Of a stretch of DNA of 64,000 nucleotides, positions 306 through 50,957 are shown piece after piece. Below the pieces are notes generated by a model, which worked only from the letters and a program-made list of their open reading frames with translations, did not search any database and had not been told where the DNA came from. This DNA is from Paecilomyces variotii (taxonomy: Eukaryota): NCBI GenBank assembly GCA_004022145.1, contig RCNU01000006.1, one strand, 5' to 3'. Position 1 is the stretch's first letter. Every line of letters begins with the position of its first letter. The position numbers were made by a program, and so were the translations under genes.

Positions 306-3300
306 TCACTTGAACAAGCTTCTATATTCCCTCATGCGTTGTTCTTGAACCTCCTTTTTGTCTATCTTGCCCCGATTCATGCTCATATCCGCCAGCTGCT
401 GTTTTCTCTTTGCCAGCTCGGCGATCTTCTCTTCGATACTATCCTTCATGAGAAACTGGACGGTGGTCACTTCGCGCGTCTGGCCAAGTCGGTGTACACG
501 ATCCACAGCTTGAGCAACAGCAGCTGGATTGTACTGTGGTTCCATGATGTATACCTTCGAAGCCGAAGTCAGATTCAGACCAACGCCACCAGCACCGATG
601 GTTGCTAGCAAAACAGTGATACGATCGTCATCTCTGAAGGTGTTGAGAGCTTTGTTGCGTGCCGCCAGAGACATTGTACCATCCAGGCGAGTGTATCCAG
701 TTATGCCGTTGTCGTTCAAAGCAATCTCAATCAAGTCTAGATGCGAAGTCCACGCAGAGAAAATAACGCTTTTTATAGGACGCTCGTTCTCTCCGAGCGT
801 CTTATTCTCTTCCACCGTATCGAGCAGATGCGAAATTAAAGCCTTCGTTTTTGTATGCGGACCCTCGTATTCACCAAGACTCTTGGCATGCTTGCGACTC
901 TGCTTCGCCTGCGCCTGTGTCTCCCAGTATTCCTGGAATCCGAGGGGCGTGATAGTGGAATACGCAGAAAGGATCCAGCCCTCGCAAACTGGACACCGGA
1001 TTTGGTTGACGGAAGAGGAATCAGACTGGCCATGGAGGAATTCCTCCCACGAGGAGAAACAGTCCGTGCAGACGACGTCGAAGCAAGGAAGCACCACTGC
1101 TATAGGTGCCGTCTTGTCAATAGCACCTGTCTCGGTGTATTTCTCTTCCAGATGTTTCCCGCAGCTCGCACATATGTCTGCTGATGAGTCTTGCATCAGA
1201 GCGAACATCTCGTAAGCCTTTCTATCCATTGCAGCGGGAGGGTCATTGGTCCCTTCTTCCAAATCGATAGCATCATGGGCACTCAATCCTTTGATCCTCT
1301 CGCGGTCCTCCTTATCAAGCAGCTCCTTTCCATGGGCACTGACCTGACGCAGGATCATCATTGCCTTCAGCACGTGGTGATACATGCGCCCGCCCATCTT
1401 CGTCTTGCTCTCGCCGGCAATAACGTTCATCATCACGTTGGACTCCCTCTTGAAAAAATCATGGAGTTCTTTCTCCTTGTCAGAGAATGTTAGAGTAACG
1501 ATCTTATCGTGCCTAGGTGGAATGTCAATCTTGTCCTTCACCCGACGAAGAGTAAATGAGTCCACAAGCACGCGCAGACTGGCTAACACGTTCGCATCCC
1601 CAGACTTGAATTTGCTTAGAATAGCAGCAGAGAAGGTGCTCCTATCATCATAAGGAAAGAGACGAAGGAACTTAGTGACTGATACGAGATCCTCCAGTCT
1701 GTTCTGAATAGGCGTTCCAGTAACGGACCAACGACGCTCGGCGTTCAATCGAAGTATAGCTTGTGTCTGCGCAGCGTTTTGCTCACGGATCGTGTGTGCC
1801 TCATCGAGAACAATGCGGAACATATTCATCTTAGTCAGTGGACTCACCCCTCTCCTAGAACCCCTCCGAGAAAGCTCGCTGAGAACAATGCTGTAAGTTG
1901 TAATGACAAGATCATACTTGGCAAGTTCCTCGACATCAGTGGTCCTCGAAGGCCCATGAAAGACGTAATATGAAATCGCGCCTTCTGTAAGATGCTCCTT
2001 TATTTGGGCTACCCAGTTGTTGACAGCACTCAGAGGAGAGACCAGAAGCGTTGTGCGAGTATTGCGAATACCTGGTGAGCCGCGCACGAGATCCGCACTG
2101 GGTATCATTTGTTCCCAATTACGGGATTCTGGGAGTGTCGCTATCACTAGCGATAGGATACTCAGTGTCTTTCCCAGACCCATCATGTCAGCAAGAAGAC
2201 CCCCCAATGTCTGCGGTGGTTCCTCGCTAAGGATCATCCCACTGATTATTTCGCGGTACCGTTTGACGCCGTTCCCCCGATATTCCAACCTCCACAGAGA
2301 GTTGTTGTCTTCTTCATTTGGCCCGAACCTGCGGGGCTTCTCCTTCTCAGTCATATACCATAAGGCCTGTTTCTGGTGGCGAAGAAGAGGAGTTGCAATT
2401 AGGGGCGACGGCTCCATCTCCGGTATGTTGTCTGCACTTTTGAGCTGATCGAACATCTTCATAACGGCGTTATTTACTTCCTCTGCTGTGCGGACTTCGT
2501 AGCTGACGCCCGGGCGGCCGCGCGCAGTTGTCGGCGTATGGGAGATCTGAGCACGTCTCCTTTCTGCGTGGGGGTTGAAAACAGGGACACCTTGTTCCAC
2601 CAAACTAGGAGTCCCCAGCCATACATTGTGCTGGCCAAGGTGCCTGCCAACTAGTTCCGCGTTCCTTCTGAGGCCATAGAGATTGATCGACACCCGGTAA
2701 AGGGCTGAGCATTGCTGCCACGGCCATTCATCTGGGGACCTCTTCCGAACATCCAGACGCGCGGAGATATCCACCTTCAATGCAGGAGTATCTAATAGAG
2801 GCACAATGGCCGCAGCCGTCTTGGCATCGACTGCGCCGAAAACATGGTTGTAAGGGTCAGAAACTTCTATCCGATTTCCCATACTAGGTTGGTGGTGAAT
2901 GCTCAGTTTTATAGAGGGCCAATCATGGAGTGAATCACCAAAGATACTCTTCGCACTAGGTTTAGGAACCATATGTGCTTGGATCATGGCACTCTCGATT
3001 TTGCCATAACAGACCCTCTGATTGCTGAGATCATTTGACCCGGTGACCTCCAAGTCATCATCCGCAGCTTGAGCGGGAGCAAAATCTATACGAGTAATCG
3101 TCAGACAATGAAACACGAAAATCAGTGCGATGGATAACGTCTTTGATGACTTACCCAGCGTCAGATCCACCACATTGGGCGTCACTGCAGTAGACGTATC
3201 CGACGTTCCTTTGTCCTCTTTCATCCACTCCCCGAGACCAACATTCCCCGACATTGAGAAATCCGATTTCTTATTTGCCACAGGCTTCTCCTCCCGTTCT

Positions 3301-3890
3301 TTCAGGACTTTTACGCGCTTCTGGGGTTGATCTGCGCGTCTCTCCACGCCGTACATATCCTCGATCAAGTTTCTATGACCTGTAGCCAGGTTATTTTCCA
3401 CTTGATCAAAGTTCCGTTTCCCGTCGCTATCATCTCCACTCTGATTCTGCTCAGCAGTTGTAAACTGGAACTGCATCTCAGGCTTGACCTGCGCCGGCTT
3501 CGTCGCAAGAAGGTTAGACTCGGTGGCGCTCTTCAAGGGATTCGAATTCGATCGCGCTCTCGGCCGTGATTTTGCGTTGCCTCTTGGATTGAGAAGTTGG
3601 TGCGCAGTAGAAGCCGTCCCCGCCGGCGCTGCGGGGTTAGCGGACGAACTCGTATCCTGTTGGGTTTTGCCTTCCAAGAGTAAGTCAGACTGTTTTATTC
3701 CTTGGGTGGGAGTCTTCTGGTGGGAGAATGGGTTGCAAGATAAGAGAGCTGCAGGAGGCTCGCTGCTCGCTCTCATAGTGTCCACGCCACGGGTTAAAGG
3801 TATTGAAGGAAATTCTGCGTTGTTACCATTTGCGATCTGTTGTTTCCTGTATGCTCGTGGGTCAAGGAGCATAGCCGCGCGAGACGCCAT
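306..3890 (-). CDS. SNF2-family (Rad5/Rad16-like) ATP-dependent helicase with RING-like finger
   Basis: GGLLADMMGLGKT (Walker A), VLDEAH (DEAH box), TGTPIQN, Cys cluster CASC...C...CTDC...CPVC between the helicase lobes, C-terminal helicase motifs (GGVGLNLT, QAVDRVHRLGQ). Likely 69-nt in-frame intron at 3086-3154 (GTAAGT...CTGAC...TAG). Confidence 0.93.
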   Translation of the reverse strand: MASRAAMLLDPRAYRKQQIANGNNAEFPSIPLTRGVDTMRASSEPPAALLSCNPFSHQKTPTQGIKQSDLLLEGKTQQDTSSSANPAAPAGTASTAHQLLNPRGNAKSRPRARSNSNPLKSATESNLLATKPAQVKPEMQFQFTTAEQNQSGDDSDGKRNFDQVENNLATGHRNLIEDMYGVERRADQPQKRVKVLKEREEKPVANKKSDFSMSGNVGLGEWMKEDKGTSDTSTAVTPNVVDLTLGKSSKTLSIALIFVFHCLTITRIDFAPAQAADDDLEVTGSNDLSNQRVCYGKIESAMIQAHMVPKPSAKSIFGDSLHDWPSIKLSIHHQPSMGNRIEVSDPYNHVFGAVDAKTAAAIVPLLDTPALKVDISARLDVRKRSPDEWPWQQCSALYRVSINLYGLRRNAELVGRHLGQHNVWLGTPSLVEQGVPVFNPHAERRRAQISHTPTTARGRPGVSYEVRTAEEVNNAVMKMFDQLKSADNIPEMEPSPLIATPLLRHQKQALWYMTEKEKPRRFGPNEEDNNSLWRLEYRGNGVKRYREIISGMILSEEPPQTLGGLLADMMGLGKTLSILSLVIATLPESRNWEQMIPSADLVRGSPGIRNTRTTLLVSPLSAVNNWVAQIKEHLTEGAISYYVFHGPSRTTDVEELAKYDLVITTYSIVLSELSRRGSRRGVSPLTKMNMFRIVLDEAHTIREQNAAQTQAILRLNAERRWSVTGTPIQNRLEDLVSVTKFLRLFPYDDRSTFSAAILSKFKSGDANVLASLRVLVDSFTLRRVKDKIDIPPRHDKIVTLTFSDKEKELHDFFKRESNVMMNVIAGESKTKMGGRMYHHVLKAMMILRQVSAHGKELLDKEDRERIKGLSAHDAIDLEEGTNDPPAAMDRKAYEMFALMQDSSADICASCGKHLEEKYTETGAIDKTAPIAVVLPCFDVVCTDCFSSWEEFLHGQSDSSSVNQIRCPVCEGWILSAYSTITPLGFQEYWETQAQAKQSRKHAKSLGEYEGPHTKTKALISHLLDTVEENKTLGENERPIKSVIFSAWTSHLDLIEIALNDNGITGYTRLDGTMSLAARNKALNTFRDDDRITVLLATIGAGGVGLNLTSASKVYIMEPQYNPAAVAQAVDRVHRLGQTREVTTVQFLMKDSIEEKIAELAKRKQQLADMSMNRGKIDKKEVQEQRMREYRSLFK

Positions 3891-4478
3891 GGCTCAAAAG
3901 ATGCTAGAAGACAGTAATCACAGAGGCGACCACTCTGATAGATATGGAGGAAGAGTTGCAAGTCGCGACCTCGAGAGGACGCGCGATTTTAATTGTATGG
4001 TTAGACGAGGAACGGTCCTCGAGGATACAGTGAGGAGACCTTCAAACGAGACGAAGGGTCCCAACGAGTCGACGGAAAGTAGACTGGGCCTGCCAGCTGC
4101 AGCGACTGGAGTTGACAATGAAAGCGCACTGAGGCAGCGTTGAGATCAAAGCAGCCCACCAGCGCCTCACATCGTGTCGGGGAAAAACGAGCAATGGAGC
4201 GCGGAGATCCGATGGAGTTGGAGAGAAGCCGCCATGACGCATCGCCGATCAGATAACCGATAAGGGCACGTGACCGCATCCAACCTATGCTGCTCTTAAG
4301 ATACCCAAGAGGATGGGGCAACAAGTTGGAGCAATTAAGATATTTAGTGAATGACCAACTGGAATCGTCAAGCTGCATTTCGATATTTGGACTATCATCT
4401 CTGCCATTTCCATTTGATACATTCTGATACCTAAATATAGTCTAACTGAAGGCTCAGTTTGTATCATACCGTACTCAT

Positions 4479-5323
4479 CTATCGAGCTAGAAATCCACCA
4501 TCAATTGGGAGGCAGACGCCTGTGACATAAGAGGCAGCATCTGAAGCCAACCACAATAATCCCTGGGCAACTTCTTGTGTTTCGCCGAACCGCCCCAGGA
4601 GGCTAACCACAGATGCGATTTGCTGATGTGTTGCGCCAACAATCTTCAGTGACTCGGCTGACATCTGAGTCTAGACGCGATCTATTTGTTAGGACAGCGC
4701 TACACCAAGTGAGACAAAAGACCTACATGGATTGCTCCAGGCGCAACAAGATTGACCCTGATTCCGTGATGAGCACCTTCCATCGCAGCGTGTTTAGTCA
4801 GGCCAACCAAGGCATGCTTTGTTGCCGTGTATGCTGGCATCTTAGGCTGTGGTCGAAATGCATTAATAGAGGCAATGTTGATAATCGACGCATTATTTGT
4901 CTTCTGCTTGATCATCTGCTGCATTTCATATTTGCAGCAGAGTGCTGTTCCCGTGAGGTTGATGTCAACAACTCGCCGCCAGTAATCTTCGTCGAACTCG
5001 AAAAGAGATGTACGGTCTGGAGTAATTGCCGCGTTGTTGATTGCAACATCTAGCTTGCCAAACTTTTGCACGGTCTGTTGGACGGCACGCTGCACCTCAG
5101 CGGACTTTGAGATATCTGTATGCACAAAATAGGCTTCGGCAGATTCGATATCCTTTGCTATCTCTTGCAACGCAGAGACCGTAGTTTGCCCTTCAATATC
5201 ATTGATGTCTGCGATGACAACTTTGGCGCCGGCTTGTGCGAATAGTTCAGCTGTCGCACGACCAATACCTTGAGCGGCACCTGTTATGAGAGCACATTTG
5301 TTGTGTAGCATGTGCGAAGCCAT
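4479..5323 (-). CDS. Classical short-chain dehydrogenase/reductase (SDR)
   Basis: TGAAQGIG Rossmann motif, NNAA motif, catalytic YTATK (YxxxK), C-terminal [14 protein letters not shown]. Intron 4671-4726 (GTAGGT...CTAAC...TAG) joins ORFs 4700..5323 and 4479..4664 as GAIH|TQMSAE. Confidence 0.92.
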
Positions 5324-6768
5324 AGTGCTGGCGATATTGACGGTGTGAATGGGACGAAAAGGTCTACCTAATGAGATATTCCGCTTAGAAATCTAGGTCT
5401 AGCAAAGATATATCAGAGTGGAGAAGCGAAACCAACATATAGCACTTGATATTGGTTTCTGATAACCATCAATGGTGGATGGTGCTCACAGTCCCAGCTG
5501 TCTTATTACTGGAACCTGACGTGCGACGTCATAGAACGATCGAGATCCTTCACGGCATAGATAGTTATCCATATTGCCGTCTCTATCTGGCCGATTGACT
5601 GGATACTGCGACTCGCTCAATTTAGATCATAGCAGGGACAGCTGGACTCGGTATCTCTTCCCCATGACAAGGATGATCATCCTAACAGGAAAAAGATAAT
5701 TGGCTGATTTTCAACCGTATTAAGATTGCAAACAAGTAAGCAGTCTGTGAAACTAAGCAGGCACAATTGCGAATCAAAGTTATTGTTCCCATTGCGACTA
5801 ACCCTGAAGTTGGCTCGCTACTGGTGCTCGTAGATCTACTAATCCACGAGCTATAGTCCTAGAGAATGGTAGCGTCTACGGTTGCATGTAAGCTGGCGAG
5901 GTGTTTCCGCTTCGATTATTAACAGTGCAGTGCCAAAAGTTTAGTTCGATCCAATCCAATCGTGCAACTCTGAGTGTGAGTATGTAGTCACAGGCTAACT
6001 AATGGATGCTCTAGCTAACATGGCGGACGGTTTCTCCGGTTTTTGCCAGGTTTTATATGACCGTGACACCCAACTACTTAGCGAGCTCCCTTTTGAGGGA
6101 TCATATGTTGTATATTTTATCAAGTACGAGAGAAGCTAAGCGATTTTTGAATCTTCTTCAGGCTACTAGGATTGGTTGTATTTTGATGGCTTTCTGCCAC
6201 TCGACCAAAAAGGAGAACTCCTAGTTGGCGAGACTCTACCTGGACCTCTAACATATTTCACACAACGCTGACACTTGTTCTGTCCTTATGTCGACCGTGG
6301 ATAAGATTTTCCCCTTTATAGCACATAAGTACTGATGTTTAGATTGTAGGATTCTTCTTGCTTGGAAAACTAAAATGAACTGGGCCAGTTATTTTTCGCT
6401 AATAAATACCTATACTGAACAAATAGCTGTACGCAGGTTCGTAGATCGCCAGAAGAGTGTAGAACTGACTTCCGTTTAGTGTTATTTGCCTTTAGCCATC
6501 AGTAGCAGTCACCGGCCATAGGATCCTCTCGAAGTATTATTGGCAAGGGTAGAACTACATATTCCAGGGGTCTCTCGAAACATTGTCAGATGAGATACTT
6601 AGTGCTTATTTCTCTACTAACATGTGTGGCAGCTAATCAAGATCCGCCAAAAAAAAAGGCCTTATCGTTAAGAGCGTTATCTTCCGCGCTCAAAATATAT
6701 CACATTGTATACGGACAAGATGGCATTCATAGTTTTCCTCGCGCCTCTCAGTATACGAGGATCCGGGA

Positions 6769-8512
6769 TCACTCCCTCCGTCGAAGGTCATATCTATGAC
6801 GGGTCACACGTTGCACGTCCAAATAACGAAACAAATGGGTGAATCCCCACCTGCTATACTTCACTCCACTCTCACTCTTTTGGGTGTTTCCCCAGTCAGC
6901 TATTGAATGTACTGCTAATGCAGTGGCAACCCCACGATTTCCAATGTGGACGTTGGCTTTCCCTGTCCGGCACAGCCAGCTTACGGGCCACCCCCCATCT
7001 CTTTCCTGCAGGTTCAACAGTTTCATCTTGTCCATCTCTGAGGACTTTTCGATTGCAAGCATTCTGCAGGCGATGATTCGCATCGATAATTCAATAGCGT
7101 TACCTTCCGTGTTGCAGCGCTCTTTCAAACGGTCAGTCAACAAACTCTGCGTAGACCGCTGAATTTCCGTATCTGGATTCTCCCACAGTAAACGAGACAG
7201 ATAGAAGAGAAAAACATCAGGCGATGAATAATATCTTGTTCCATCGAGATAGGCACGGTGAAGTAGGGTCCCGTATATCCAATCTTTTGTTGGCAACAAA
7301 ACTTTGTCCTCGCCGTGACCATAACGATAAAAAAACCGGAGAACGTTGACGCAGACAGCTGGGTCGGTTCGAGGCCTAGAACTATCAAAGTATGTCTGCC
7401 GTAGATGATTAGAATAGATTAAGGGCAATTTCTTTTCTTCAAGGTCAGCTTGAAAATACCATGAAGATTCCATCAGAAGTGGTGAAGTCAAGAATCTCAG
7501 ACATAACAGCTTGTGCTGCTGGAGGATTTCTTGGTAAAACTACTAACGCAAGACACGTTGTGTCCAGATCATCAGGGTAATGGCCAGAAATAAGATTCTG
7601 GCTTCCTGTTGACGATGCTTAGCCCTCTTGAAACGTGACGGCATGACGCTAGTCGATATGGATTCCATATACCTATGAAGTAATTCCATGTCTTTTCGTG
7701 CCATTCAAGGTCAAGCATATCACTATCATTGATATCAGTATCTTTGCTAGTAGCTTCACGGGTCGAAGCATGAATACGTACAGTACTCCCGTTGCCTCGT
7801 ATATCAAAAGCTGTGAAAAGTTATCGCGAATCTCCATTCCATTGCTGGTTACTGAATGTAGACGCTTCGAGTTCGATGTGAGAAACGACAGTCCTCTCTT
7901 CTCCGGGTCCGACAAGAGATTTAGCAGCGCCTGATCCAGAGAACTTAAGCTATCAAAGATGATTCCATGTATTCCAAGGGACCGAGCGGCCAGGATATTC
8001 TCTGTTTTGTTGTCAATTAGAACCGCTCGCGAGGGATCGACTCGAGTCTTTTGAAGTAGGTATTTGTATGACTTCAATTCCGGTTTGCACGCCCCCATTG
8101 CACAAGAGACGAATATGTCGTCGAAAACATCACATGCAAAGCCCCGTACATTCTGGAGATAGCCCCAGTCAACAACAGAAACATTAGACATGATGTAGAT
8201 GTGAGAAATTCCCGGATATTGCTTTTTAAGTGATTTGACAAAATTATAGACGTCCATGTTCAGCGAAATCGTCTGTCGAGCTTTGTCAAAGATCTCAGCA
8301 ACCTCTGTAGGGGTGATCGCAAATCGAGATGCAATTTGTCTGTAGCATTCCACTTCTTGGACCAGGCCACATATGTATTGTCGCCAGATTTCGGTCGACT
8401 GAACCTCCTTCAATAAGTGAATGGAAAGGTCAGATTGACCCACTTTTGGAGACCAGTTGAAGATCACATCCCCCAGATCAAATATGAGTGACCAATTCCC
8501 GGTATCGTTCAT
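6769..8512 (-). CDS. HAD-like class II terpene cyclase (AstC/DrtB/AncC-type drimenyl-diphosphate/drimenol synthase-like), 4 exons, ~517 aa
   Basis: Manually spliced exons 8512-7782, 7722-7673, 7605-7460, 7395-6769 keep frame. N-terminal HAD domain (LIFDLGDV, CKP, IDNKTEN). C-terminal domain has DNFSQLLIYE, TWNYF, YPDDLDTT (DxDTT protonation motif, 7556-7573), RTDPAVCVNVL, RAYLDGTRYY and QW-like QERDGGW. Confidence 0.88.
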
Positions 8513-9375
8513 CTTAATGACGAAGGATAGGATGTCTAGATAACAAAGCCAAGATGCAAAAGTTTATTCAAGTATGAAGGGATTATCGTTATTCAGAGAG
8601 GTGTGAAAAAGCATCTTAATATACGTACTACGCGACGTTATTCCAGTAAGAACTATTATCTCCATCAACAGGGAGATAAACCTGAATTTTGGACTAGCCA
8701 GTACTTCTGATCACTTGGACGTTCTTACAAATGGTGTACCATGCATGCAATGTCAGATTTAAGTAGAAACTATCGATCAGTTGTCCCATACGCTTGCCTA
8801 CCTCCAGGGCTATGGGCATGGCTCATGGTGGTGTCCTGACCGTGGGATGCACTAATGAACATTATCACACACCACCATTTATTTCCGAGTATTATTACCC
8901 AGGTTCTATGTTATACGATGCATCTGCACAGTAAGATTACCAATCTCACAGCTTTCTAATGGACATTGGCGCACTCTTCTATGCTCGGTGACGACTTTTC
9001 GATTATCTCATAGAGATAGGATGCACCTGTGTATTCATCCGGTAAGACATTAATGACCAGACGAGCTCACCTGGCATAATCTAGATTGGAATCTAAGTTT
9101 TTTTGTTGGAAGAGGGGGGTTACATTGCAGACTCCTCAGTTTCAAAGAATTGTATCTCCTATTTGAAGGAACAGCTAACTGCGCAACGTAAATTTACTTT
9201 TATATTGTTCACATACCCTAACTGAGTTACATATATTCTATTGAAGTGGCCTATTTTCGCCAAAAAAAGTTGTCTGTTATCAAGGAAGATGTATCAGCTC
9301 GAAAAGCTCACCGATCCAGGTGAACGTTTGCCTCTTACCTTCTGCTATGACTACCTCTCACTATTGTCGTCACCT

Positions 9376-10657
9376 ATGGTCCCTAGCACCTGGGACTTTG
9401 AAAATCCCTGCAAGGACTGGGAGAGATCTCTAGAGTATCAGAAAAATTCATTTGTCCTACACCCACAAGCGGCTAATTTACCATTTCATTCGGGTCTTCC
9501 CGCGCGAGCCAATCGTTTCCTTGGATCCGTGATCGAATATAGCGAGATATTATTGGGAACTTTTGCAGAAGATCAGGATCTCCAGAAGGTTCGACTCCTC
9601 AATGGGATGTCACTAGCAGATGTTGCATGTCGGCAGCTGCAAAAGCCACCAATGGAAAGATTCATCGTACCAGCAACACAACTCTTCCCTTATGCAAATC
9701 AAGAGAGGTTGAAATTGATTGCAGCGTCAACGCTATTAATTGTATTACTTGACGGTGAGTCACACTTAGCAAGCTGAAGAACGTGAAAACGCAGGGGAAA
9801 TAACCGAGCTTACGATACTATAATAGATGCTCAACAAGAGATCAAAACGGATATGGTAAGGTTTCCCGCTGGACTTTGGGACTGTTTGTTCACTGATACT
9901 TATTCGGTCATTTTCTATCAGCTCGAACATGCCCTGGAAGATTTCAGCAAGCGGCTGGCAAATAGGCCTGTGGAAAATTCCTCGCGGTCAAGTCGATTTC
10001 AGAATTTCATCGACGAGTTTACCCGAGACGTACTCTCAGCAGACGCTATCACGGATACTGGAGGACACGATGTCATCGAGACAATGTGCAAGTGGATCAC
10101 ACATGAACAGTATAAAGAACAGTTTGGCTCTGTAACAGAATATATGGAATACAGGTGGCACGATTCAGCTTTCCTGTATGAGATATATGTTGTTGCTTAA
10201 TGTTTATCTATGGATGCTGACCTCGCACAGATGGACATGCGCCTGTGTCAAATTTTCAATAGCATCCAATGTCGATCTTAGTGACCCGAAGTTAGCGACA
10301 TTTATGCGAGAAGCAGGGAACCATCTCTCATTGGTAAACGACTTGGCATCTTTTGAGAAGGAGGTACGAGAATTCGAATCAGGAAAGGCCTCTTCAGTGA
10401 TCAATGTCGTGGACGTGCTCCAACGTGAAAACAAAATCGATGCATTGGAAGCAAAGCGAAGAGCATATTCGATGCAACTTGAGTCAGAGAGTCTCATAAA
10501 GGAAGAACTGGAGCGCTTGAAATCGCAGGGGTCATTATCCCTGGAGCAATGGCTATTTGTTGATGCGGTTATAGCGATGCTTGGTGGAAATGTCTTTTTC
10601 TGCATGACTACATCCCGATATGGTGGAGAATCATCACGAATCGGTGGTTATGATTAG
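9376..10657 (+). CDS. Class I (Mg2+/ionisation-dependent) terpene synthase, 4 exons, ~362 aa
   Basis: Exons 9376-9754, 9827-9855, 9922-10175, 10231-10657 keep frame. Asp-rich LLDDAQQE spans intron 1; YRWHDS effector-Arg region; NSE motif NDLASFEKE; C-terminal TSRY. Alternative in-frame ATG at 9289. Confidence 0.85.
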
Positions 10658-11115
10658 ATCTGATCTTATATGCAGGGAAGGACCAGCTTTTACCCTTCTA
10701 GGAAATATGGTGCGCAACGGCTGGACATCTAGCAGAGATCTAGATATCGTATGATACGGGTAATCTAATTCGAAGATCTTCACCCTTCAGCAGTGGCATA
10801 GAAGTAAAATCGAAGTAGGTCCGTAGAGTTACGTGAGGAGGATGCCGGAAGTTACAGTAAGACGGTGGCTAAACTGGCACTTTGAAATTTATGTAAGTTG
10901 GTTTATCTGCTATCGTGTCTCTTAAGCCATGAAAACATGTGTATGAGTTGTTGGAAATGATGGTTCTACCGGGACATAGCCGCTTTGGCGTCTCTAACAG
11001 GAGTGTATAACACCATTCAGATACATACAGGCCGGGTATTATTCGTAATCTGAGATATTTACACCGAAGTGAAACAAATCATTACTTGGACTCGTAAAGA
11101 TAAGTAAAAGCGATC

Positions 11116-12951
11116 TCAAGACGTGACTAGCACCCGGACACCCTTGCTTTCTTTCTTGGGGAACGGAAGGAATAACTCATGTGCAAGCGTGACATCTTCT
11201 CGCGTCGTCTCGAATAGCTTGAAGTTAATGTTGCGGAAGACCTTAGCCATGACGATAAGCATTTCAGCTCGTGCGAGACTATAATCACATGTTAGTAGGT
11301 GCTCCAGGTGGTGTCTGTATGAGAAGGCATTACTTCATTCCAATGCACTGTCGCGATCCTTTAGTGAAGGCGACTAGATACTTTTCGAGGTGCTTGCGCT
11401 GTTCAGGATCCAACCACCGCTCAGGGACGAAGCTGTATGAGTCAGGGAAGATTTTCTCGTTATGGTGCATGAAGACACTGGTCATTCCCACTGGGGTCTG
11501 GAGTCTTGTTAATCCATATACAAAGTATCTTCCTATCGAAGGAAACTTACTCCAGCTGGAATCGACCATTCTTTATACTGAAGAGTACGGTCGGGGGCAA
11601 TTCTTGCTAAGCGTGTGGAAACTCCATATGAGAGTCTAGAAGAGCAGGTTAGCATGGGATGGTAGCTGCGTGCAAAAACTACATATACATACCTGAGTCC
11701 TTCAAGCATAACCGACGTCTGATACAAATTACAATTAGCTTAGGAATGGTCTCAGTCGATCACAGAGGCTAGAAACTCACCAGATAGGGCATCTTTTCAA
11801 GGTCCACCAGCGAAGCGGTGTGCTCAGGGTCAAGACGATCTAACTCTTCTCTCAATTTCTGCAACTTTTCCGGATTCTCAAGCAGATAGTATGTGGTCCA
11901 ACTCAGCATTTTAGCGACCGTTTCGCCGCCAGCACCTATCACGACTTGGATTTCTTGCGCTAGACGTTCAGCACTTTTCTCCTCTGGGGGTAAGTTGCTC
12001 TCGAGGACGTCGTGGAAGAAAGTAGGGTGCGCATATTTCTTTTTCTCCTCTTCGTCCCCCTGGGATGCAATAATAGAATCGATGAGCACTCCGCAGCGAC
12101 GCTGGAACTTGAACATCAGCCCCATTCCTGGATCGAGTCGAGCGACTATATCTTCGGGGAAGGCTTTCAGCAAAGATAGCAGCCATGGAAAAGGCTTGAA
12201 GAATGCACTGCTCTTCGCGATTCCACTCAGAGTTTCACTCCACTGTGGAACGAAATCAGGGGCATCCAGATAATGAAAGCCAGCTCCCATTGTATAGTCG
12301 GATATGACGTCGGTCGCCAGACAGCTATAAGCGTGCTGGGCATTGATGGCGACGCCTGTATTCTCATACTCTTTCAAGCGATCGCAGAGTTTATCCGCTA
12401 GGGCCTGGATTTCCGGTTCCAACTGACGGACCCGCGACATTGAGAAATACGGGTTCATATTCGACCTCAATAGACGATGATGCGAATGGTCTAGGATAGC
12501 GATTGCCGCCTTCGGATTGCCGAACATGTTCGCATAGAACTTATACTTGTTGCGGGGGCTGTCGCGTGAATAGAGGACTTCATAGAAGTCCGGATCGTCT
12601 ACATGGAGCTCCCAGGGACTGATACGCACAATCGGTCCTATCATACGATTCCATCGTCAGTATTCGAATTCATGAAACTTTCTCTTCTCGGCAGTGATTG
12701 TTGCACGGACCATATTTTTTGTGCATCCGGGCAATTTCGAATGTATACTTTCCATGCAGGATAGCATCGTAATAGAACTCATACCATGCCGTCATGGCAG
12801 CCAGTTTTGGCCCCGGAAACTTCGCTAATGGCGAGAACCATAGTCGATAGACAGCCAGCCCGACGGCATACAGTGTGTATGCAATGACTGCTGTCCAGAT
12901 AGGATGCGAGAGCAGTGGCTGAAACGCCTCCATGGTGTCCGGGACGGACAT
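11116..12951 (-). CDS. Cytochrome P450 (trichodiene-oxygenase/CYP58-like group), 6 exons
   Basis: N-terminal TM helix followed by [17 protein letters not shown]-helix AGGET, EGLR (ExxR), PERW, heme motif [10 protein letters not shown]. Exons 12951-12711, 12637-11781, 11718-11693, 11635-11551, 11497-11334, 11278-11116. Start could be ATG 12933. Confidence 0.93.
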
Positions 12952-13573
12952 CGAATCTCGGTAGATCAGTATATCACACGGATGACAACCATCAATTGAC
13001 GGTTGAGGAATGTTATGCACGGAAAAGCGAGGATATGAATGGCAAAGCAGTGGGTTCTTGTCGGGATCTATCACATCAAACTAAATACTTTCTAGGTTAG
13101 ATAGGCACGGCCCGTGGCGCTTCTAGTAGAGCACTATAAGCCAACTGCAGTAAGTATAAGGCCCAATCCTACTCACAAGCCCGGGAACATAGCCCGAGAA
13201 GCCGGACAAGGAGGTGCTTCGATCGAAGGAACACCATGCTGTGCACTATCGATTGGTTATCTTTCAATTATGGTTTGCTGGTTTCGGGGAGATGTTGCCG
13301 CGGGTGGGCGTAGTTTAGATCATGAAAAGGGTCCCCGACAGTCAATCAGCCGTTAGGATGTCCAGATTTCTCGTGGGGAACACGAGGTTACCGCGCCGTT
13401 CAAACCCCCCATACGGAATGGTATCCATGGTGGCTGAAGCTAATTATTATCTGTTATGATTCGACAGCGGACCCTACATAAGCGCACAGATATCCTCCTC
13501 CTCGTGGCGGCTGAACTGAAGGATCTTGGGTTGACTGTCAGTTAACGACCGTCGGCTTTACCGGCCAACAAAG

Positions 13574-15253
13574 ATGTCCCAAACGCAGGATATTGATGCT
13601 GAAAGAGCTGCAAGCTTCCACCCACAGAATCCCATTGTTCCCGAAGTGAGTGTCAGTTTCAGACCCACCGCGTCGTGACGTTATATACTAAGGAGTGATG
13701 CAGGACGAGTCGGCACTTTATGATGACTCCGAAGACTTCATATCGTAAGCCATAGCCGGGTTCTACAGACGGATGAATTAGAGCTAATGGTATTCGATTT
13801 ATCAGTGACGGAGGAAGCACCACGGATTCATTGACCTCGAGCGTGTTCAGTTACCAGTAAGTGTCAATCTAAACCTCCTTCACTTCCACTGCCGCAGCGT
13901 TGAAAGGGGTCAGATCTTTTGACACTAGAGTGTTGACAATGACTATAGATACGAGGTCAGTAGGCAATGATAATATAGTACCAGAGTTGACGAATTGACA
14001 CGCAATGGTTTCAGAATGGACGTCGATACCACGCATACAGGCAAGGAGAATACGTGATTGTATGTCACCATTAGCATCAGCATCTCGATGTTCCTGAGCA
14101 TCAAATACTAATTCTAAACTCAATACAGCCAAATGACGAAAAGGAACAAGAGCGTCTCAACCTGGTATGTGGACTTGTCCCGAGGAAGACACCAACGTAG
14201 CTTTCTAAACGCCAGAAAGCATCATCACATCTTCAGCATGGTTCTTGGCGGCGCGTTGTACCGCGCCCCTATACCCAAACACGTGGGCAATATTCTAGAT
14301 CTAGGGACCGGGACAGGAGCTTGGGCGATAGATATAGCAGAGTATGAGTGCCACTTCTGAAAAACTGCGAAACGCAACAACTAACGCTGAAATAAAGTGA
14401 ACATCCCCAAGCCGTCGTTACTGGTATGGCACTATCCACTTACCCTCTCGACACCCTTACGAGTTGCGATCTGAAACTTTATAAAACCAGGAACCGATCT
14501 GAGTCCCATCCAACCTTCGTGGTATGTAATACCAAAATAAAGAAACAACCGGAAACCGCCGTTCAAACTATCTTGTCACAGGGTCCCACCAAACTGCCGC
14601 TTCATAATCGACGATTTCGAACTCGAGTGGAACTTCTCGCAACCGTTCGATTTCATTCACGCGCGGAGCATCGAAGGGTCAGTGAAAGATTATCAGAGAC
14701 TTTTCCGCCAAGCATACGAGAATCTGAAACCGGGTGGATGGTTCGAAGTTGCGGACGCCACAGTGGGAGTTTTCTGCGATGACGAGAGTATTGAACGAGC
14801 GCCAAACTTGCTCGAATGGCGCGATCGACTCATCGAAGCGAGTGGGAAGTTCGGGAAACAAATGGGCGTGTCGCCCAGATATAAGCATTGGATGATCAAT
14901 GCTGGGTTCACTGAGGTTACGGAGGAAGTTTATAAGGTGAGTTTCTATCTACCCATAATCATTCCACTCTCCGCTCTGGCAACAATAACTCATATAACCC
15001 TCCCCCCTCCGTGCATCAGGTCCCATACTCCCCCTGGCCAAAGGATCCCAAATTGAAAGAACTCGGCCGATATCAGCAAGTCCTGATGCTAGAAGCTCTC
15101 GAAGCTTATTCGTTTGCCCTGTTCACAAGAGTGCTGGGCTGGACGAGTGCCCAGATACAGCTTTTGCTGGTCGGGGTGAGAAGAGAGCTATTGGATCGTC
15201 GATTTCACGGATATTCAAAACTCTATTTCGTGTATGGGAAGAAGCCGGAATGA
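13574..15253 (+). CDS. LaeA-like class I SAM-dependent methyltransferase, ~11 exons
   Basis: Spliced product gives SVFSYQYENGRRYHAYRQGEYVIPNDEKEQERLNL, ILDLGTGTGAWAID (SAM motif I), GTDLSPIQP, VPPNCRFIIDD, FDFIHAR, NLKPGGWFE, WPKDPKLKELG, VYGKKP. About ten GT-AG introns read by eye. Confidence 0.9.
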
Positions 15254-15277
15254 CTACCGATTGACTGATACCCGATG

Positions 15278-15280
<3 letters not shown>

Positions 15281-15314
<34 letters not shown>
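15281..15314. repeat. (AT)n microsatellite
   Basis: Run of ~17 AT units just downstream of the methyltransferase stop codon. Confidence 0.95.
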
Positions 15315-15320
<6 letters not shown>

Positions 15321-16393
15321 CTTCGCCATATTTATGATTGCATGTGGGGTTGGAACAGGGGTTTTATTAAACGAGGGGAAATATACAAAATCTAGAGCAT
15401 AGAAAAGGAAAATCGTAATACTGAATACAAGATCTGATTTAGCAGTAACTCTATTTGATATGAAGTTATAAGCATAACGATGATTCTATAACTCCCAAAC
15501 ATGAACGGAAATTGATCACAAATAAGCATGTTCTGTCGTGCTTAGTTCATTATAAATCCAACTAGTCGAGTCCAAATCGACATCCTGACGAGATATAATG
15601 CATCGGTTTATGCACGCTAAGTGGCATACCTAGATAAGTCTGACTCTGTACGAACTGCAGAAGTGGGGCTTAGTATGGGTTAGAAGCGACTTGACTTATT
15701 ATGAGAGCTTGATTCCTGTTGATAGATCTTCGTGGTCTTGATACATGCCAACGATATACGAAAGATGAGTTGCTCAACAAGATATTACGCAGTATCGAAA
15801 CTAGACGTATATATATGTATGTATATCCAGTGTTTTTGAGCGGTTGGCGTATTCAGGAACTGGCTGCTGTGGTCGTGAAGAGTAGGTAAAGGAGAGGCCG
15901 ACGGTCATGAGTCTGCTTCCTCAGTTCAGAGCGAGTGAGATGATACTAACCTTAGAGCTGCCTGCTAGCCTCACGATTCGTGACGATGAACTGCAATCGA
16001 TGGGTACGATGCGACTGACTCAAGGCTTATAGGAACAATTTATCCCCTATTGTAAGTCACGATCTGATACAAAAAAAGAAAGTCAAAGTATGGATATGTT
16101 CGCAATGCATTAGTTCTCATAATATATTACATGGTTCAGAATATGCCCTTCTCCCAATTAGATATGAAAAGTAACCGGACATCTATATACAACATCTAGG
16201 TGAAGAAGGAAACATTTTTCCCAACCGGTTTGTATCGTAAAACTCAAAGTCAAAAGGATGATAGTAGAGAACCAGCAGCAAACTCCACATGCTCCAGGCT
16301 TTTCATGCCCTGCAGGGACTGCCTGTCACCAATGACTCGCTAAAACATAAAATGGGAAAAAAGATAGGGAGGAGGCTCTGAAAGAGTCCGAGT

Positions 16394-18816
16394 CTAGCAC
16401 CAGGTGAAAACCGGGTTCTTGCTCTTCACGGCTTCCAGACGCTCAACAATCACTTTGCGCTGGTTACCTTCCATCCCTTCAGCGGCTGCATATCCGAGGT
16501 CGCCCTCGAGATCATCTCCGTTGAACGTGTAGCCGTTGCTGCTACGTTGTGAAAAAGAGCCCTGTTTCACGTGGCCATGAGAGGTTCGTCGCTTATGGCC
16601 TGGATCGGCATGGCCGTTGGTAGGCGCTCCCCAGCTCCGGGCCAGGTTTCGTTCACCAACCGTACGGTCAAAACTGTCGTATCCGGCTTCGCTCGAAGGA
16701 CTCATATAACCCTCGTCGATTCGTCGGAGGTCACCGGATTGTCGGTTGCGAGAGAGTTCGAATCGGTTGGGATTTGGGAGCTCGCTAGACGGAGACCCGA
16801 GACCCAACAGATCCTGATTCGAACCTGGAGGGGGTGACATCGCAGCACTGATGTCCATCTCTTCTTCTTCTTCATCTTGATAATTTCTTGCTTTGCGCAT
16901 CTGCATATCTGTCGACGGGCCGCGAAGGGGGATAGCCACGGGGACATCCACCAAGTCGTCCCAGACACAGACTCTCGTTCTCCGCGTGAGCTCCAGAGGT
17001 CCATGGTCAGGCTGTTTGAGTGTCTCCACCACATTCCATGCTTGACCCTTCATCACTGCAATCTGTCGCGCAAACATGCTCTCTTTGAAGTCATCGTCCT
17101 GCGCAAATACGCGCCGCAGCGCCGTCTGTGTGCCGCTCCACCACGCCGTCGATGTAAGAAGTGGGAGGAAATGATCTCTCGTCTTCTGAGAGAATGGTTG
17201 ACCGATAAGGGAAACCGGAAGGAACAGCCAACCGAAGGGGAAACTTCGCCACTGCCAGAGAATTCTTGTTAGCTGCAGTCATAATAAGTTTTGACAGAAA
17301 GTGGTTTACTTACAGCATCAGGGTGTTTCCACGGCCACGACAGGCTGTTGTCAATAGCCCCAACCTTAATCGTAGCCGTAGCTTGCTGGGCCCGTGTGCT
17401 CAACGGTGTCCCTGTCCTGCTTATGGCTTGCATACCTTCCTGTCGTCGATAGGGATAAGGAGATGTGGGAGTTAGCTCCGAGTTGGTGGGAACGAGTCGA
17501 GCGGGCGGCGTCTGGTCATCGTCCTCATCGTCATTCGTGGCGCCATTGGTCTTGGGAGGCTCTGCAACGATGGAGACTTCTTCATTTTTCCAGTCGACCT
17601 TGATCATCCAGTTATCCAGACCTCGATCAGTGTTTCGCATGATGTAGTCCAAGATCACCAATTTCTCAAGCTCTTCTCGGAAAGCCTGCTTCAAAGTCTC
17701 AGTCCAGTGGAACTTTCGCTGAGGAATCTCATCGCGAGGAGATGAAGCGGCTGAAGGCCCGCTCTCCTCGTCGTCTTCGTCGTCGGACTGTATCCCAGAA
17801 GGTCGACAAGCCTCGTTCCACGGGCGTTTCTTCCTCTTTGGCGCATCCTCGGCGCGGAAGCCTGAATTCACCTGGTCAGGCCAGGGATGTTCGCGTAGGA
17901 AGACGTTTGCATCTTTGAAACCTTTCAAAAAGACCTGGAAACTCCCGACTTTGGCAGGAAGCGATTTCTTGCCTCTCCAGGCCTTTCTTCGGTCCCAGAA
18001 ATCATAGTAGAATGATTTGGAGGAGAGCCACACAATATCGGTGTAAGGAACGAGGTTTGTGCGTAAACGAGCGTCGAGAACGTATGCGGCCGCCTCTGAA
18101 ACGTAGGACAGATTGGGAATCAAACAAGCGCGACCAAAGAAGCAAGGAAACAGGTTCCGATGTATCCATTTGGTCCACTTTGGATTGCGCGATGCGTAGG
18201 GCTCCTCATCCTTGGGCTTGAAGACGCCCACGACCTTGCCTTCGCTGTTGCGTGCAAAATAACTGCCTGAACTGCCCTGAGAGATCATCTTCGGATGCAC
18301 GCCCAGTTCGATGGCGTTGCGGACACTCTCCACAACCGTCTCGAACTCCTGACGAGCCCTCCGCTGTTCACGCTCGAAGTCATCCGACTCCAGCTGTTCT
18401 GCCGTGACGGGTCTCACCCCTTCCGGTGCCTGGAAGACGGAGTGGTGGATCTCAAGCTTCTCCTCATCCGACGTCTTGCCCCGAACCTTGTGGATTTTGA
18501 ACTTGGACGCAATCTCCTCCGCCCATCTTTCGAGGCGCGCATTGATCGCTTTGATGTCGACTCCTGAATTGCTGCGTACTCGACGCTGGTGGTAGCCTGC
18601 GTGTTGGCGGCGATATTCGGGGGGCGACGAGGGGCCCGATGCGTGCATCTGGGCACGGGACGAAACAGGAGCATATCGTGGAGCAGAACTGGATATTGGT
18701 GCCGGTACGTCGTAAAGGTCATCTTCATCGAAGTCATCATCGAAATCATGGCCTCGCTCTTCCTCCGCCTGAGCAAGACGGGCGTAGCCCGAGGTGGCCG
18801 GGCGCTGTTTAGACAT
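16394..18816 (-). CDS. LSB6: Phosphatidylinositol 4-kinase type II (Lsb6-like)
   Basis: ISQGSSGSYF, VFKPKDEEPY, GRACLIPNLSYVSEAAA, LDYIMRNTDRGLDNWMI, AIDNSLSWPWKHPD|AWRSFPFGW, MKGQAWN, PVFTWC. Intron 17252-17313. Confidence 0.93.
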
Positions 18817-49201: not shown

Positions 49202-50957
49202 GTCTCTCCCGGGCAGTTCACCACCTGCCAACCTTCAGTATGACCAAGTACTTAATGCCATGAAGCAGAACTCGGAGCATTTATCATGCACTCCTCTTCT
49301 GTGGATATCATATAAAGGGAATTTCTGTTCACAACTCATGAAAGCATCACTTCTCATGTGTCGTTCTTATTATCGGGGTTTGGGCAACATATCTCTTGAG
49401 CGTTTGTAATTTCTTTTCTTTTCTAATATTTCTTGCGCTTTTTCTTTTCCATACTGTTTGCCGGAAGGGTGGGGTATATGCTATTTTCCTTTTTGATAAA
49501 TGGAATGCTCCAAGAACGTCGAACTCTCAACTTGGTTTTCATGTACGGGGACTCATCTGTCATATTTTCTTGCAAGCGTGTTTGAAAATCGTTCCTAAAT
49601 CACATGCCGTATCATAACTATCACGTACGCATAATTAGTATCCATGTCCCCCCTCTCTCTCTGTGATTCAAGGACAATAGTTAGATATGTATGTACAAGT
49701 CTATGTGTTAATCTATTTATCAAATAGTCTAATATAATATAATCCTAACTCTTGAAATATAGCATAGCAGTGTAACTAACTCTGAGCTTGATTTGTCGTA
49801 GGCAGATCCTTGATCAAAAGTGTTGGAAGTTACTTAACTCGAGATCTTTGCATCTGTGATCAAAAGGGGCTCCATAACCCAACATTATAATCCTTTGTGC
49901 ATAGAGCAAATCAATCTTACAGACGCAGTGAATGCAGATACATTACTGGAACAGTAGGCGTAACTTGAACTGAAGTAGAGTAGAGTACACGGGAAAATCA
50001 GCCAGTTAGTTGTCCTATGCTGTCTGGCAATAATGTATGGAAGTGCAGTAAATCTGGAGGGGAAGGGGCTCTAGCACCGGCATTAAGTATATTTCTAAAG
50101 CTCCAAGTCATCGCCCGCTCTGCCACTTTGTTACTAACTAGTTCATCGATATGGCCTGGCACTACGGCTTCAGAAAGGAATAACGAAAGAGAATTCGAAC
50201 GCAGGATACCTCTATCACTTATATTGCTTCTCCGTTTTTTTCGTCTCATCTAGGGTCTTGTTTTCCTTCGCGTGTCGCTTTTCGTCACCAGATAAAAGAG
50301 GCGGCAGTAGACTTCACAGCAGAAAAGACTAGAGCCAATTGAATCAAGCACGGGCAGGAAAACTCAACTCTCTTTATACCCTTCAAATCACCTTCAATCT
50401 TTCTCGCTCTCTGGGTACTCGTAAATGTGGGGATATATGGTAAAATATGGCCAGAAAACATAACATCAATGGAGCGGGAACAGATAAAAAAGGCCAATCT
50501 GGAACGCCGAGATGTATAATCGGAGACAGAAAGCAAGCAAGCAAGCAAGAGAGGAATACACGTTTTCGAACAGAACAGACCCGAAACTAGACACGCAGAA
50601 AAGGGATATCAAACATCATTGCCTTGGTATCATACCCTGCGGATTTCAATGTAAACCAACAATCTTCACCTGACCCCACGCAATCAGCACAACTGATCCT
50701 TGTCACACAACCTTGCACACCGTTCTCAGCACAGAGTAGAGGATAAACGTCTCGCATAACAAATCGGGATATAAAACGCCTGATAATCTGCCAGAATTTT
50801 GAGAGGAACCGGCCGGAGCGCCAGTCCCCTCTCCTCATTGCGTCTTACGTCGTATCTCTTTTGCTTGCTTCCCGTGGTATCAAAAATGAGAAATAAAAAC
50901 ACGACCGCTGAAAAAGGATCCTTGGGGTATATTGCTGCAAATTGATATTTTTTCGAT

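Follow-up and report, generated by a model that had tools for sequence, protein, structure and literature searches.

Our analysis identifies a five-gene terpene island at positions 4479-15253 of a 64,000-nucleotide stretch of Paecilomyces variotii DNA (contig RCNU01000006.1; this whole stretch is the window referred to below) as a real, compact and probably lineage-specific terpenoid cluster of this fungus. The island encodes two terpene cyclases of different classes, and the reading that we favor, by a modest degree, is that these represent parallel entry enzymes acting on FPP, not consecutive steps. This reading is backed by the kinship of the class I synthase with AaTPS, by the P450 found in the neighborhood of related synthases, by the spliced transcripts of the P450 and the methyltransferase, and by the housekeeping genes that flank the island on both sides. 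The features are as follows, in window coordinates.

306-3893: SNF2 helicase, upstream housekeeping flank
4479..5323 (-): SDR, 262 aa; exons 5323-4727 and 4670-4479; Pfam adh_short, 6.8e-54
6769..8512 (-): HAD-like class II terpene cyclase (HAD-cyclase), 517 aa; exons 8512-7782, 7722-7673, 7605-7460 and 7395-6769
6961..6972 (-): C451-R-T453-G of the HAD-cyclase, replacing the family Y-x-Y-G (AstC Y446-H447-Y448-A449)
7556..7570 (-): class II general-acid motif D273-L-D275-T-T, residues 273-277; both Asp in 64/65 homologues
7997..8014 (-): HAD motif IV, D167-N168-K-T-E-N; Mg-binding second Asp changed to Asn
8465..8479 (-): HAD motif I, D12-L-G-D-V; nucleophile Asp kept, D in 59/65 homologues
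8513..9288: divergent intergenic region between both cyclase start codons, 776 bp
9289..10657 (+): class I terpene synthase, 391 aa; exons 9289-9754, 9827-9855, 9922-10175 and 10231-10657
11116..12951 (-): cytochrome P450, 511 aa, six exons; Pfam p450, 8.5e-24 and 8.6e-12
12952..13573: divergent promoter region of P450 and methyltransferase; RNA contigs end at 13009 and 13248
13574..15253 (+): LaeA-like (Methyltransf_23) methyltransferase, 339 aa, 11 exons; Pfam, 3.5e-11
Downstream flank, in order: PI 3-/4-kinase-domain gene, GATA factor, Serinc, MutL, chitin synthases

The five genes run in the order SDR (-), HAD-cyclase (-), class I synthase (+), P450 (-) and methyltransferase (+), and this order, the strands and the housekeeping flanks are all as an earlier note on this DNA had described them. 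The head-to-head arrangement of the cyclases that it reported also stands, but the gap of ~0.86 kb does not, as the start codons at 8512 and 9289 lie 776 bp apart. The outer edges are exact, with the SDR stop ending at 4479 and the methyltransferase stop at 15253. The earlier note had seen no GGPP synthase, phosphatase, transporter or transcription factor, in agreement with our scan of the island ORFs, which revealed no phosphatase, prenyltransferase, transporter or transcription factor. No sixth gene is visible: the interval 3900-16400 has 79 further ORFs of 50 aa or more, all without a Pfam match at E <= 1e-3. Scanning the island for tRNAs and Rfam families gave no matches. The one other HAD ORF is an SSM1-type nucleotidase at 63105-63608, 48 kb off. 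Across the upstream regions 5381-6100, 8513-9288 and 12952-13573, the sharing of 8- to 11-mers never rose above that in 200 shuffles, and no word of these lengths was common to all three. The adjacency of the two cyclases is retained in a second P. variotii strain (locus tags DTO195F2_3782 and DTO195F2_3783). The earlier note did not recognize the gene combination from characterized clusters, and our literature search likewise found no paper on this cluster.

The proposal that the class II enzyme is a HAD-like DxDTT cyclase proved firm, as structure matches and the DLDTT motif place it in the AstC/AsDMS family, which also takes in AacA, DrtB and AncC. Its best solved relatives are AstC (8.7e-32 for the HAD part, 7.7e-29 for the cyclase part) and AsDMS (6.2e-12 and 3e-33, respectively), and both the N-terminal HAD Rossmann domain and the C-terminal class II beta domain are present, even though the Pfam HAD Hydrolase match (1.4e-4, 22.7 bits) falls under the 26.4-bit cut-off. 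Identity to its best database relatives is about 40-42%. The gene model was built by homology, with no spliced RNA contig seen; its 517-codon frame is open over four exons, the introns of 59, 67 and 64 nt all have GT..AG ends, and it aligns without gaps to P0036 at all three junctions. In the alignment, the acid-orienting residues equivalent to AstC N324 and Y361 are conserved; AstC numbering was cross-checked against residues given in PMC13244436 (K314, R316 and Y446-K451).

Judged from its sequence, this enzyme is intact yet strongly diverged. In the HAD phosphatase site D12, S109, K143 and D167 are retained while position 168 is Asn, where D is found in 59/65 homologues and N in none, though AstC also has D-N. 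The equivalent of this position in AsDMS, D186, binds Mg (PMC12232559), and the site is probably weakened in the P. variotii enzyme. The nearest relative beyond P. variotii, P0243 (59% identity), retains D-D in motif IV, and thus the D168N change is recent. In the cyclase half, the aromatic pair that frames the A and B rings (AstC Y446 and Y448) is absent, with Cys and Thr in its place; position 451 is Y in 64/65 homologues, and position 453 is Y in 54/65 and F in 5/65. The residue between them is Arg, as in AacA and 8/65 homologues, whereas K occurs in 44/65, Q in 9/65 and His in AstC. Mutation Y448A abolishes AstC activity (PMC13244436, partial text). R142C and W127C are further substitutions. 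Overall, the enzyme deviates at 29 of 130 columns that are at least 90% conserved among 65 homologues, compared with 5-10 in other ascomycete members, a count inflated for an ascomycete protein by a comparison set made up mostly of basidiomycetes. Its terminal branch is the longest in the tree (1.73 against a median of 0.17). These changes would fit diphosphate release, an altered product, or decay.

The class I synthase is identical, with zero mismatches, to the P. variotii protein P0229; Pfam Terpene_syn_C_2 matches the window synthase at 2.3e-7 and P0229 at 2.6e-14. Among solved structures it is closest to AaTPS (6lcc), with an E value of 2.6e-63 over residues 43-387; the second best, PDB 8ii9, for which the literature search found no paper that mentions it, follows at 2.5e-20. 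Identity to AaTPS is about 36% (matches counted in the alignment), which is insufficient to fix the substrate. AaTPS itself accepts FPP alone, to the exclusion of GPP and GGPP, and forms 7-epi-alpha-selinene (PMC7414894, partial text). All invariant family columns are retained, including N286, S290 and E294 of the NSE triad (NDLASFEKE, residues 286-294), and so is the nearly invariant R379-Y380 pair. The Asp-rich motif is DDAQQE (residues 155-160), with Q159 at the fifth position, which is E in 13/15 other aligned family members; E160 comes directly after it.

The remaining enzymes are of familiar types. The SDR carries TGxxxGxG at residue 14 and YxxxK at residue 165; its intron (4671-4726) is predicted from GT..AG ends and a single open frame and is absent from the 15 listed RNA joints, and its locus is covered by a 904-nt RNA contig from run X1. 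The heme motif of the P450 (10 protein letters, not shown) lies at residue 447, RNA contigs from runs X1 and X5 show all five of its introns spliced out, and the transcript spans at least 10876-13009. For the methyltransferase, spliced contigs in X1 and X5 give a start at 13574 and 10 introns, replacing the start near 14118 proposed earlier; the mRNA extends over ~13248-15447, with a loose poly(A) end at 15447, and includes a 7-nt micro-exon (13949-13955). The SDR, P450 and methyltransferase are thus all assembled in run X1, the latter two in spliced form. Runs X2 and X3 hold only unspliced, DNA-like contigs, and a run X5 contig over the synthase (9854-10160) leaves intron 2 unspliced. The two cyclases have thin or no RNA contig cover, an absence that carries no weight. 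As the RNA runs consist of contigs, depth cannot rank the genes.

Homologues of the synthase were located in 62 metagenome loci (584,724 bases, all of them metagenome contigs). No HAD-cyclase occurs in these loci at E <= 1e-5 with four queries, or at E <= 1e-3 when the window protein is the query. The loci collapse to 39 sequence-distinct groups, and 13 of the 20 groups in L001-L035 have a flank of 3 kb or more on one side; the HAD-cyclase/synthase pairing appears in none of the 13, and the adjacency was seen only within P. variotii. In five of the same 13 (L003/4, the L007 group, L020/21, L024 and L026), a near-full-length homologue of the window P450 (260-400 bits, 32-40% identity) stands 0.7-3.1 kb from the synthase, and thus synthase and P450 form a conserved module; the remaining P450s in these loci reach 47-140 bits. 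Named matches listed for the HAD-cyclase are mostly basidiomycetes, plus Penicillium odoratum and Geoglossum. Those listed for the synthase are Neofusicoccum, Zymoseptoria, Botrytis, Aspergillus heteromorphus, Bipolaris, lichens and P. lecythidis. Among the matches listed, which are incomplete for both enzymes, the two sets overlap only in P. variotii, a weak indication. Fusion proteins were considered as a functional link and set aside: P0085 (1335 aa), which bears Scm3 and Myb domains, is a chimera produced by annotation, and P0191 and P0204 are prenyltransferase-cyclase fusions that are uninformative on this point.

In the parallel reading, the first part of the island comprises the class I sesquiterpene synthase, of the AaTPS family, and the P450, a companion of such synthases in other fungi too. 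The synthase would most likely ionize and cyclize FPP on its own, the P450 would then oxidize the resulting hydrocarbon, and the oxidized product may be esterified or methylated by the methyltransferase, whose gene diverges from that of the P450. The second part comprises the strongly diverged AstC-family cyclase and the adjoining SDR. If active, this cyclase would protonate FPP through D275 of the DLDTT motif to give a bicyclic phosphate ester of drimane or altered type. We infer the substrates, the products and the order of the steps, and both halves may feed one end product.

The earlier note instead envisioned a relay, which we consider improbable, in which the HAD-cyclase makes an unhydrolyzed bicyclic C15 diphosphate and the synthase ionizes it to a rearranged or olefinic drimane that is then oxidized and methylated. 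On chemical grounds such a relay would need an allylic diphosphate, that is, the drim-8-en-11-yl isomer made by AstC and not drimenyl or albicanyl diphosphate. The short head-to-head spacing of the start codons, retained in DTO195F2, invites a functional link and speaks against the parallel reading, as do the unusual DDAQQ of the synthase, which is off the family consensus, and the lack of an AstI/AstK or DriI/DriL type phosphatase in the island. With the HAD Mg ligand lost, the synthase or a housekeeping phosphatase would be the only evident candidates to act next on a diphosphate product, and AstC, which shares the D-N of motif IV, releases a diphosphate without phosphatase activity (PMC13244436, partial text); the recent origin of this change, with P0243 still D-D, also favors the relay. 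The D-N pair, the island without a separate phosphatase and the shared promoter region of the cyclases are, however, compatible with the relay and not evidence for it. Against it stand the FPP-only selectivity of AaTPS, the characterized member of the synthase family (PMC7414894, partial text), the P450 as the recurrent partner of the synthase, and the lack of any HAD-cyclase in the 62 loci and 13 flanked groups, so that the co-conservation as neighbors expected of a relay pair is not seen there. In addition, the HAD-cyclase retains the nucleophile Asp where AstC has Glu, so that some phosphatase activity may remain, its Arg between the replaced tyrosines resembles AacA and not AstC, and no precedent for the relay was found in the published literature. 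A bolder version, to which we give still less credence, holds that the remodeled HAD-cyclase releases an allylic bicyclic diphosphate, of the drim-8-en-11-yl type or derived from a larger prenyl substrate in a widened pocket, and that the AaTPS-like synthase was recruited to ionize it.

The same divergence raises the prospect, unlikely in our view though less so than the relay, of a HAD-cyclase that is inactive or in decay, a relic beside a working cluster of synthase, P450 and methyltransferase to which the SDR may also belong. The 29 altered columns, the long terminal branch, the loss of the positions of Y446 and Y448, the second of which is essential in AstC, and the changes R142C, W127C and D168N all point in this direction. 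So do a search with the C-terminal exon, which had no full-length P. variotii protein among its matches, and the sole annotated model, DTO195F2_3782, which is 244 aa long and lacks 31 residues spanning HAD motifs III-IV. Decay sits poorly, however, with an open frame across four exons with intact splice sites and gap-free junctions, with retention of DLDTT and of the N324 and Y361 equivalents, with a HAD exon that is identical at 198/212 positions in another strain outside the gap, and with a deviation count inflated by the mostly basidiomycete comparison set.

If the parallel reading holds, the island is a small sesquiterpene cluster of an ordinary kind, accompanied by another cyclase that is unusual; it would be useful for genome mining and unsurprising. 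The HAD-cyclase nevertheless represents a natural experiment on residues that recent structures of AstC and AsDMS single out as decisive, namely the phosphatase Mg ligand and the Y446/Y448 pair, and its product and phosphorylation state would test the structural models of both. The relay, if true, would carry the logic of CPS/KS over to C15 scaffolds and to cyclases of a non-canonical family. In its bolder version it would be without precedent both as a class II to class I relay at the sesquiterpene level and in pairing a HAD-beta cyclase with a class I synthase.

Comparison with known systems places the island beside several of them. AstC (astellolide cluster, Aspergillus oryzae; PDB 22tz/22ty) and AacA have in common with the window cyclase the N-terminal HAD fold, the C-terminal class II beta domain and DxDT(T). 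AstC is alike in the N324 and Y361 equivalents, in R316 (also Arg), in K314 (conservatively replaced by Arg) and in the motif IV D-N (PMC13244436, partial text), and differs in its Glu at the nucleophile position, which is Asp here, and in Y446/Y448, which are Cys/Thr here; the AstI/AstK-type phosphatases, acyltransferase and NRPS-like gene of the astellolide cluster are all absent near the window cyclase. AsDMS, a bacterial drimenol synthase (PDB 9m7d/9mhs), is the best match to the cyclase half and has an identical motif I, FDLGDV, but carries D185-D186 in place of D-N and fully dephosphorylates its product (PMC12232559). AaTPS (Alternaria alternata, PDB 6lcc) is likewise a stand-alone enzyme of the class I alpha fold, and the two share a long N-terminal extension and a nearly identical NSE triad (NDLASYDKE in AaTPS), while its Asp-rich motif is DDSWE against DDAQQ(E) here and its F244 and Y272 are, as read off the alignment, Trp here; the passages searched in PMC7414894 make no mention of a gene cluster. 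The CPS/KS labdane relays similarly encode class II and class I terpene enzymes together, but their class II enzymes are of beta-gamma architecture whereas a HAD-beta fusion is found here, the substrate here would be C15, and the examined loci show no co-conservation; after bicyclization of FPP, only one double-bond isomer would keep an allylic diphosphate. The dri cluster of Aspergillus ustus and the drt cluster also combine a HAD-like cyclase with P450(s) and dehydrogenase(s); in dri, the scaffold alcohol needs DriA, DriI and DriL, and P450/dehydrogenase pairs are many (PMC13564434, partial text), whereas the P. variotii island has a single P450 and a single SDR, lacks further scaffold genes and carries a class I synthase as well.

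Stop-to-stop open reading frames combined with Pfam and solved-structure searches, with gene models refined by homology and RNA contigs, bear out the five-gene terpenoid island proposed for 4479-15253. Although the earlier note described the island correctly, its gap of ~0.86 kb between the cyclases does not hold, as the two start codons lie 776 bp apart, and the methyltransferase, placed there with a start near 14118, begins at 13574 in our model.

Genes of the terpenoid island
5323-4479, minus strand: SDR, one intron, 262 aa
8512-6769, minus strand: HAD-like class II cyclase (HAD-cyclase), four exons, 517 aa
9289-10657, plus strand: class I terpene synthase (synthase), four exons, 391 aa
12951-11116, minus strand: P450, six exons, 511 aa
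13574-15253, plus strand: LaeA-like methyltransferase, eleven exons, 339 aa

The housekeeping flanks were also recovered, with Pfam-typed neighbours on both sides (an SNF2 helicase, a PI 3-/4-kinase-domain gene (Pfam PI3_PI4_kinase), a GATA factor, Serinc, MutL and chitin synthases with myosin motors). In 3900-16400, another 79 ORFs reach 50 aa or more, all without a Pfam match. G+C is 0.43-0.45 across 6-12 kb versus 0.49-0.52 in the flanks. The chitin synthases, at 36408-40055 (minus strand) and 43864-49263 (plus strand), stand head to head, carry cytochrome b5 matches and match Pfam Myosin_head at 2.3e-10 and 4.8e-69, respectively; the pair is ordinary housekeeping context outside the island. 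A HAD-fold ORF at 63105-63608 was considered as a cluster phosphatase and rejected, being instead an SSM1-type nucleotidase (PDB 3onn, 8.6e-46). Between the SDR and HAD-cyclase, 6185-6255 stands out by very high summed contig depth in each of the four assembled RNA runs (1346 in run X1), with numerous contigs whose loose ends differ on either side; in this it resembles a short element that is repeated or widely shared, and scans for tRNAs and Rfam families found no match in it.

The synthase aligns without a mismatch to P0229, a database protein of Paecilomyces variotii (Byssochlamys spectabilis), which assigns the window to this species, and by far its closest solved relative is AaTPS of Alternaria alternata (6lcc; 2.6e-63 versus 2.5e-20 for the next). 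AaTPS is described as a stand-alone enzyme with FPP as its sole substrate, 7-epi-alpha-selinene as its product, and the motifs DDSWE and NDLASYDKE (PMC7414894). A HMMER search with the synthase returned 249 representatives when cut at E <= 1e-3, 30 of them passing E <= 1e-30; identity reaches 38% in the best full-length match. All invariant columns of a 16-member alignment are retained, the NSE triad and the RY pair among them; the Asp-rich motif reads DDAQQ(E), where the fifth position is E in 13 of the 15 other members. The synthase of one P. variotii strain (P0232) differs from that of the window at 39 of 391 positions versus 0-16 for each of six other full-length cluster members, which points to a deep split inside the species label.

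Co-conservation of the two cyclases was tested on metagenome contigs scanned with the synthase alignment. The scan yielded 62 loci that total 584,724 bases, often with 10 kb per side, in 39 sequence-distinct groups; loci L001-L035 make up 20 groups (L001-L037, 22), and 13 of the 20 extend for 3 kb or more on one side. In 5 of these 13 flanked groups the synthase has, at a distance of 0.7-3.1 kb, a homologue of the window P450 that is close to full length and scores 260-400 bits at 32-40% identity, versus 47-140 bits for all other P450s in the loci. The same high-scoring type occurs in three groups with distant synthase-like matches only (L041, L055/56 and L059). By tblastn, HAD-cyclase was found in none of the 62 loci, either at E <= 1e-5 with the window protein and three homologues or at E <= 1e-3 with the window protein alone, and no methyltransferase homologue was found in them. 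Pfam typing of 76 long ORFs from nine loci gave P450s, SDRs, oxidoreductases and a Zn-cluster factor, with no HAD domain among them. The co-occurrence of the two cyclases that the earlier note proposed to look for is thus seen in 0 of 62 loci. Their adjacency was seen only within P. variotii, where the annotation of strain DTO195F2 has it too (locus tags 3782 and 3783). Since the P450 recurs and HAD-cyclase is missing from these loci, the conserved unit is synthase plus P450, and among the loci examined HAD-cyclase joins this unit in P. variotii only.

Contigs of runs X1 and X5 splice all five introns of the P450 and all ten of the methyltransferase, the latter packed within 1.7 kb and including a 7-nt micro-exon (13949-13955) that shows up in both runs as 5 surplus letters at a joint; an X1 contig covers the SDR. 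The contig ends of the P450 (13009) and the methyltransferase (13248) are ~240 bp apart, and the two genes therefore share a short divergent promoter. Neither cyclase is covered by a spliced contig, and the contig data are uninformative both ways on cyclase transcription. Runs X2 and X3 are labelled metatranscriptomic, yet over 3500-17500 they give only unspliced contigs in which introns and intergenic DNA are read straight through (one, of 4475 nt, over 11615-16081), from a source strain with about 2-3% differences from the window; these contigs resemble carried-over DNA in RNA libraries. Just past the methyltransferase stop and ahead of a poly(A) site near 15447, 15272-15327 is flagged as repeat, and the minus-strand ORF 15123-15485 across it contains a stretch in which I and Y alternate, consistent with a TA-type microsatellite.

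The HAD half of HAD-cyclase matches the solved fungal enzyme AstC (22tz, 8.7e-32), and its cyclase half, with DLDTT at residues 273-277, matches bacterial AsDMS (3e-33) and AstC (7.7e-29). The spliced model aligns without gaps over all three junctions to the database homologue P0036 (199/496 identical; 199/476 to P0005). In an alignment with 65 homologues, 130 columns are conserved in 90% or more of them; HAD-cyclase deviates at 29 of these columns, other ascomycete members at only 5-10, and its terminal branch is the longest in the tree (1.73 versus a median of 0.17), with weak support as sister of a Penicillium odoratum protein. By these sequence measures HAD-cyclase is a strong outlier of its family, in a comparison set of mostly basidiomycetes that exaggerates this status. 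The annotated model from strain DTO195F2 (P0242, DTO195F2_3782) has only 244 aa; 31 residues across HAD motifs III-IV are absent from it, through either faulty annotation or a lesion. Outside the gap, 198 of 212 residues are identical to the window protein.

The best-supported picture, which we hold with modest confidence, is a composite island with two parallel entry enzymes. The AaTPS-type synthase would act on FPP, followed by its ancestral P450 partner, with the methyltransferase co-transcribed divergently from the P450, while the diverged HAD-cyclase and the SDR would provide a second, independent and possibly altered entry point. That HAD-cyclase is instead decaying seems unlikely, given its intact 517-codon frame; with this open frame and the equivalents of the acid-orienting AstC residues N324 and Y361 kept, the enzyme is intact in frame and acid motif. 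The relay of the earlier note, in which the HAD-cyclase product is passed to the class I synthase, would agree with the loss of a Mg ligand from HAD-cyclase, the lack of a phosphatase gene in the island and the promoter region common to both cyclases. However, it has no comparative support and on chemical grounds would require the allylic drim-8-en-11-yl isomer, and we judge it distinctly improbable. Literature searches found neither a published HAD-cyclase to class I relay nor a description of this cluster.

Compared with the solved enzymes, the pocket and the phosphatase site of HAD-cyclase are both altered, as judged from the alignments. The A and B rings are framed in AstC by Y446 and Y448, and the Y448A variant is inactive (PMC13244436); the equivalents of these two tyrosines are C451 and T453, at positions that hold Y in 64/65 and Y or F in 59/65 homologues, respectively. 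HAD motif IV reads D167-N168; at position 168, 59 of 65 homologues have D and not one has N. The AsDMS equivalent of this position, D186, binds the catalytic Mg (PMC12232559), and P0243, at 59% identity the nearest relative from another species, keeps D-D. AstC likewise has D-N at motif IV, and is described as releasing drim-8-en-11-yl diphosphate and as having no phosphatase activity (PMC13244436). The two differ at the nucleophile, where the window HAD-cyclase keeps Asp12 whereas AstC has Glu13.
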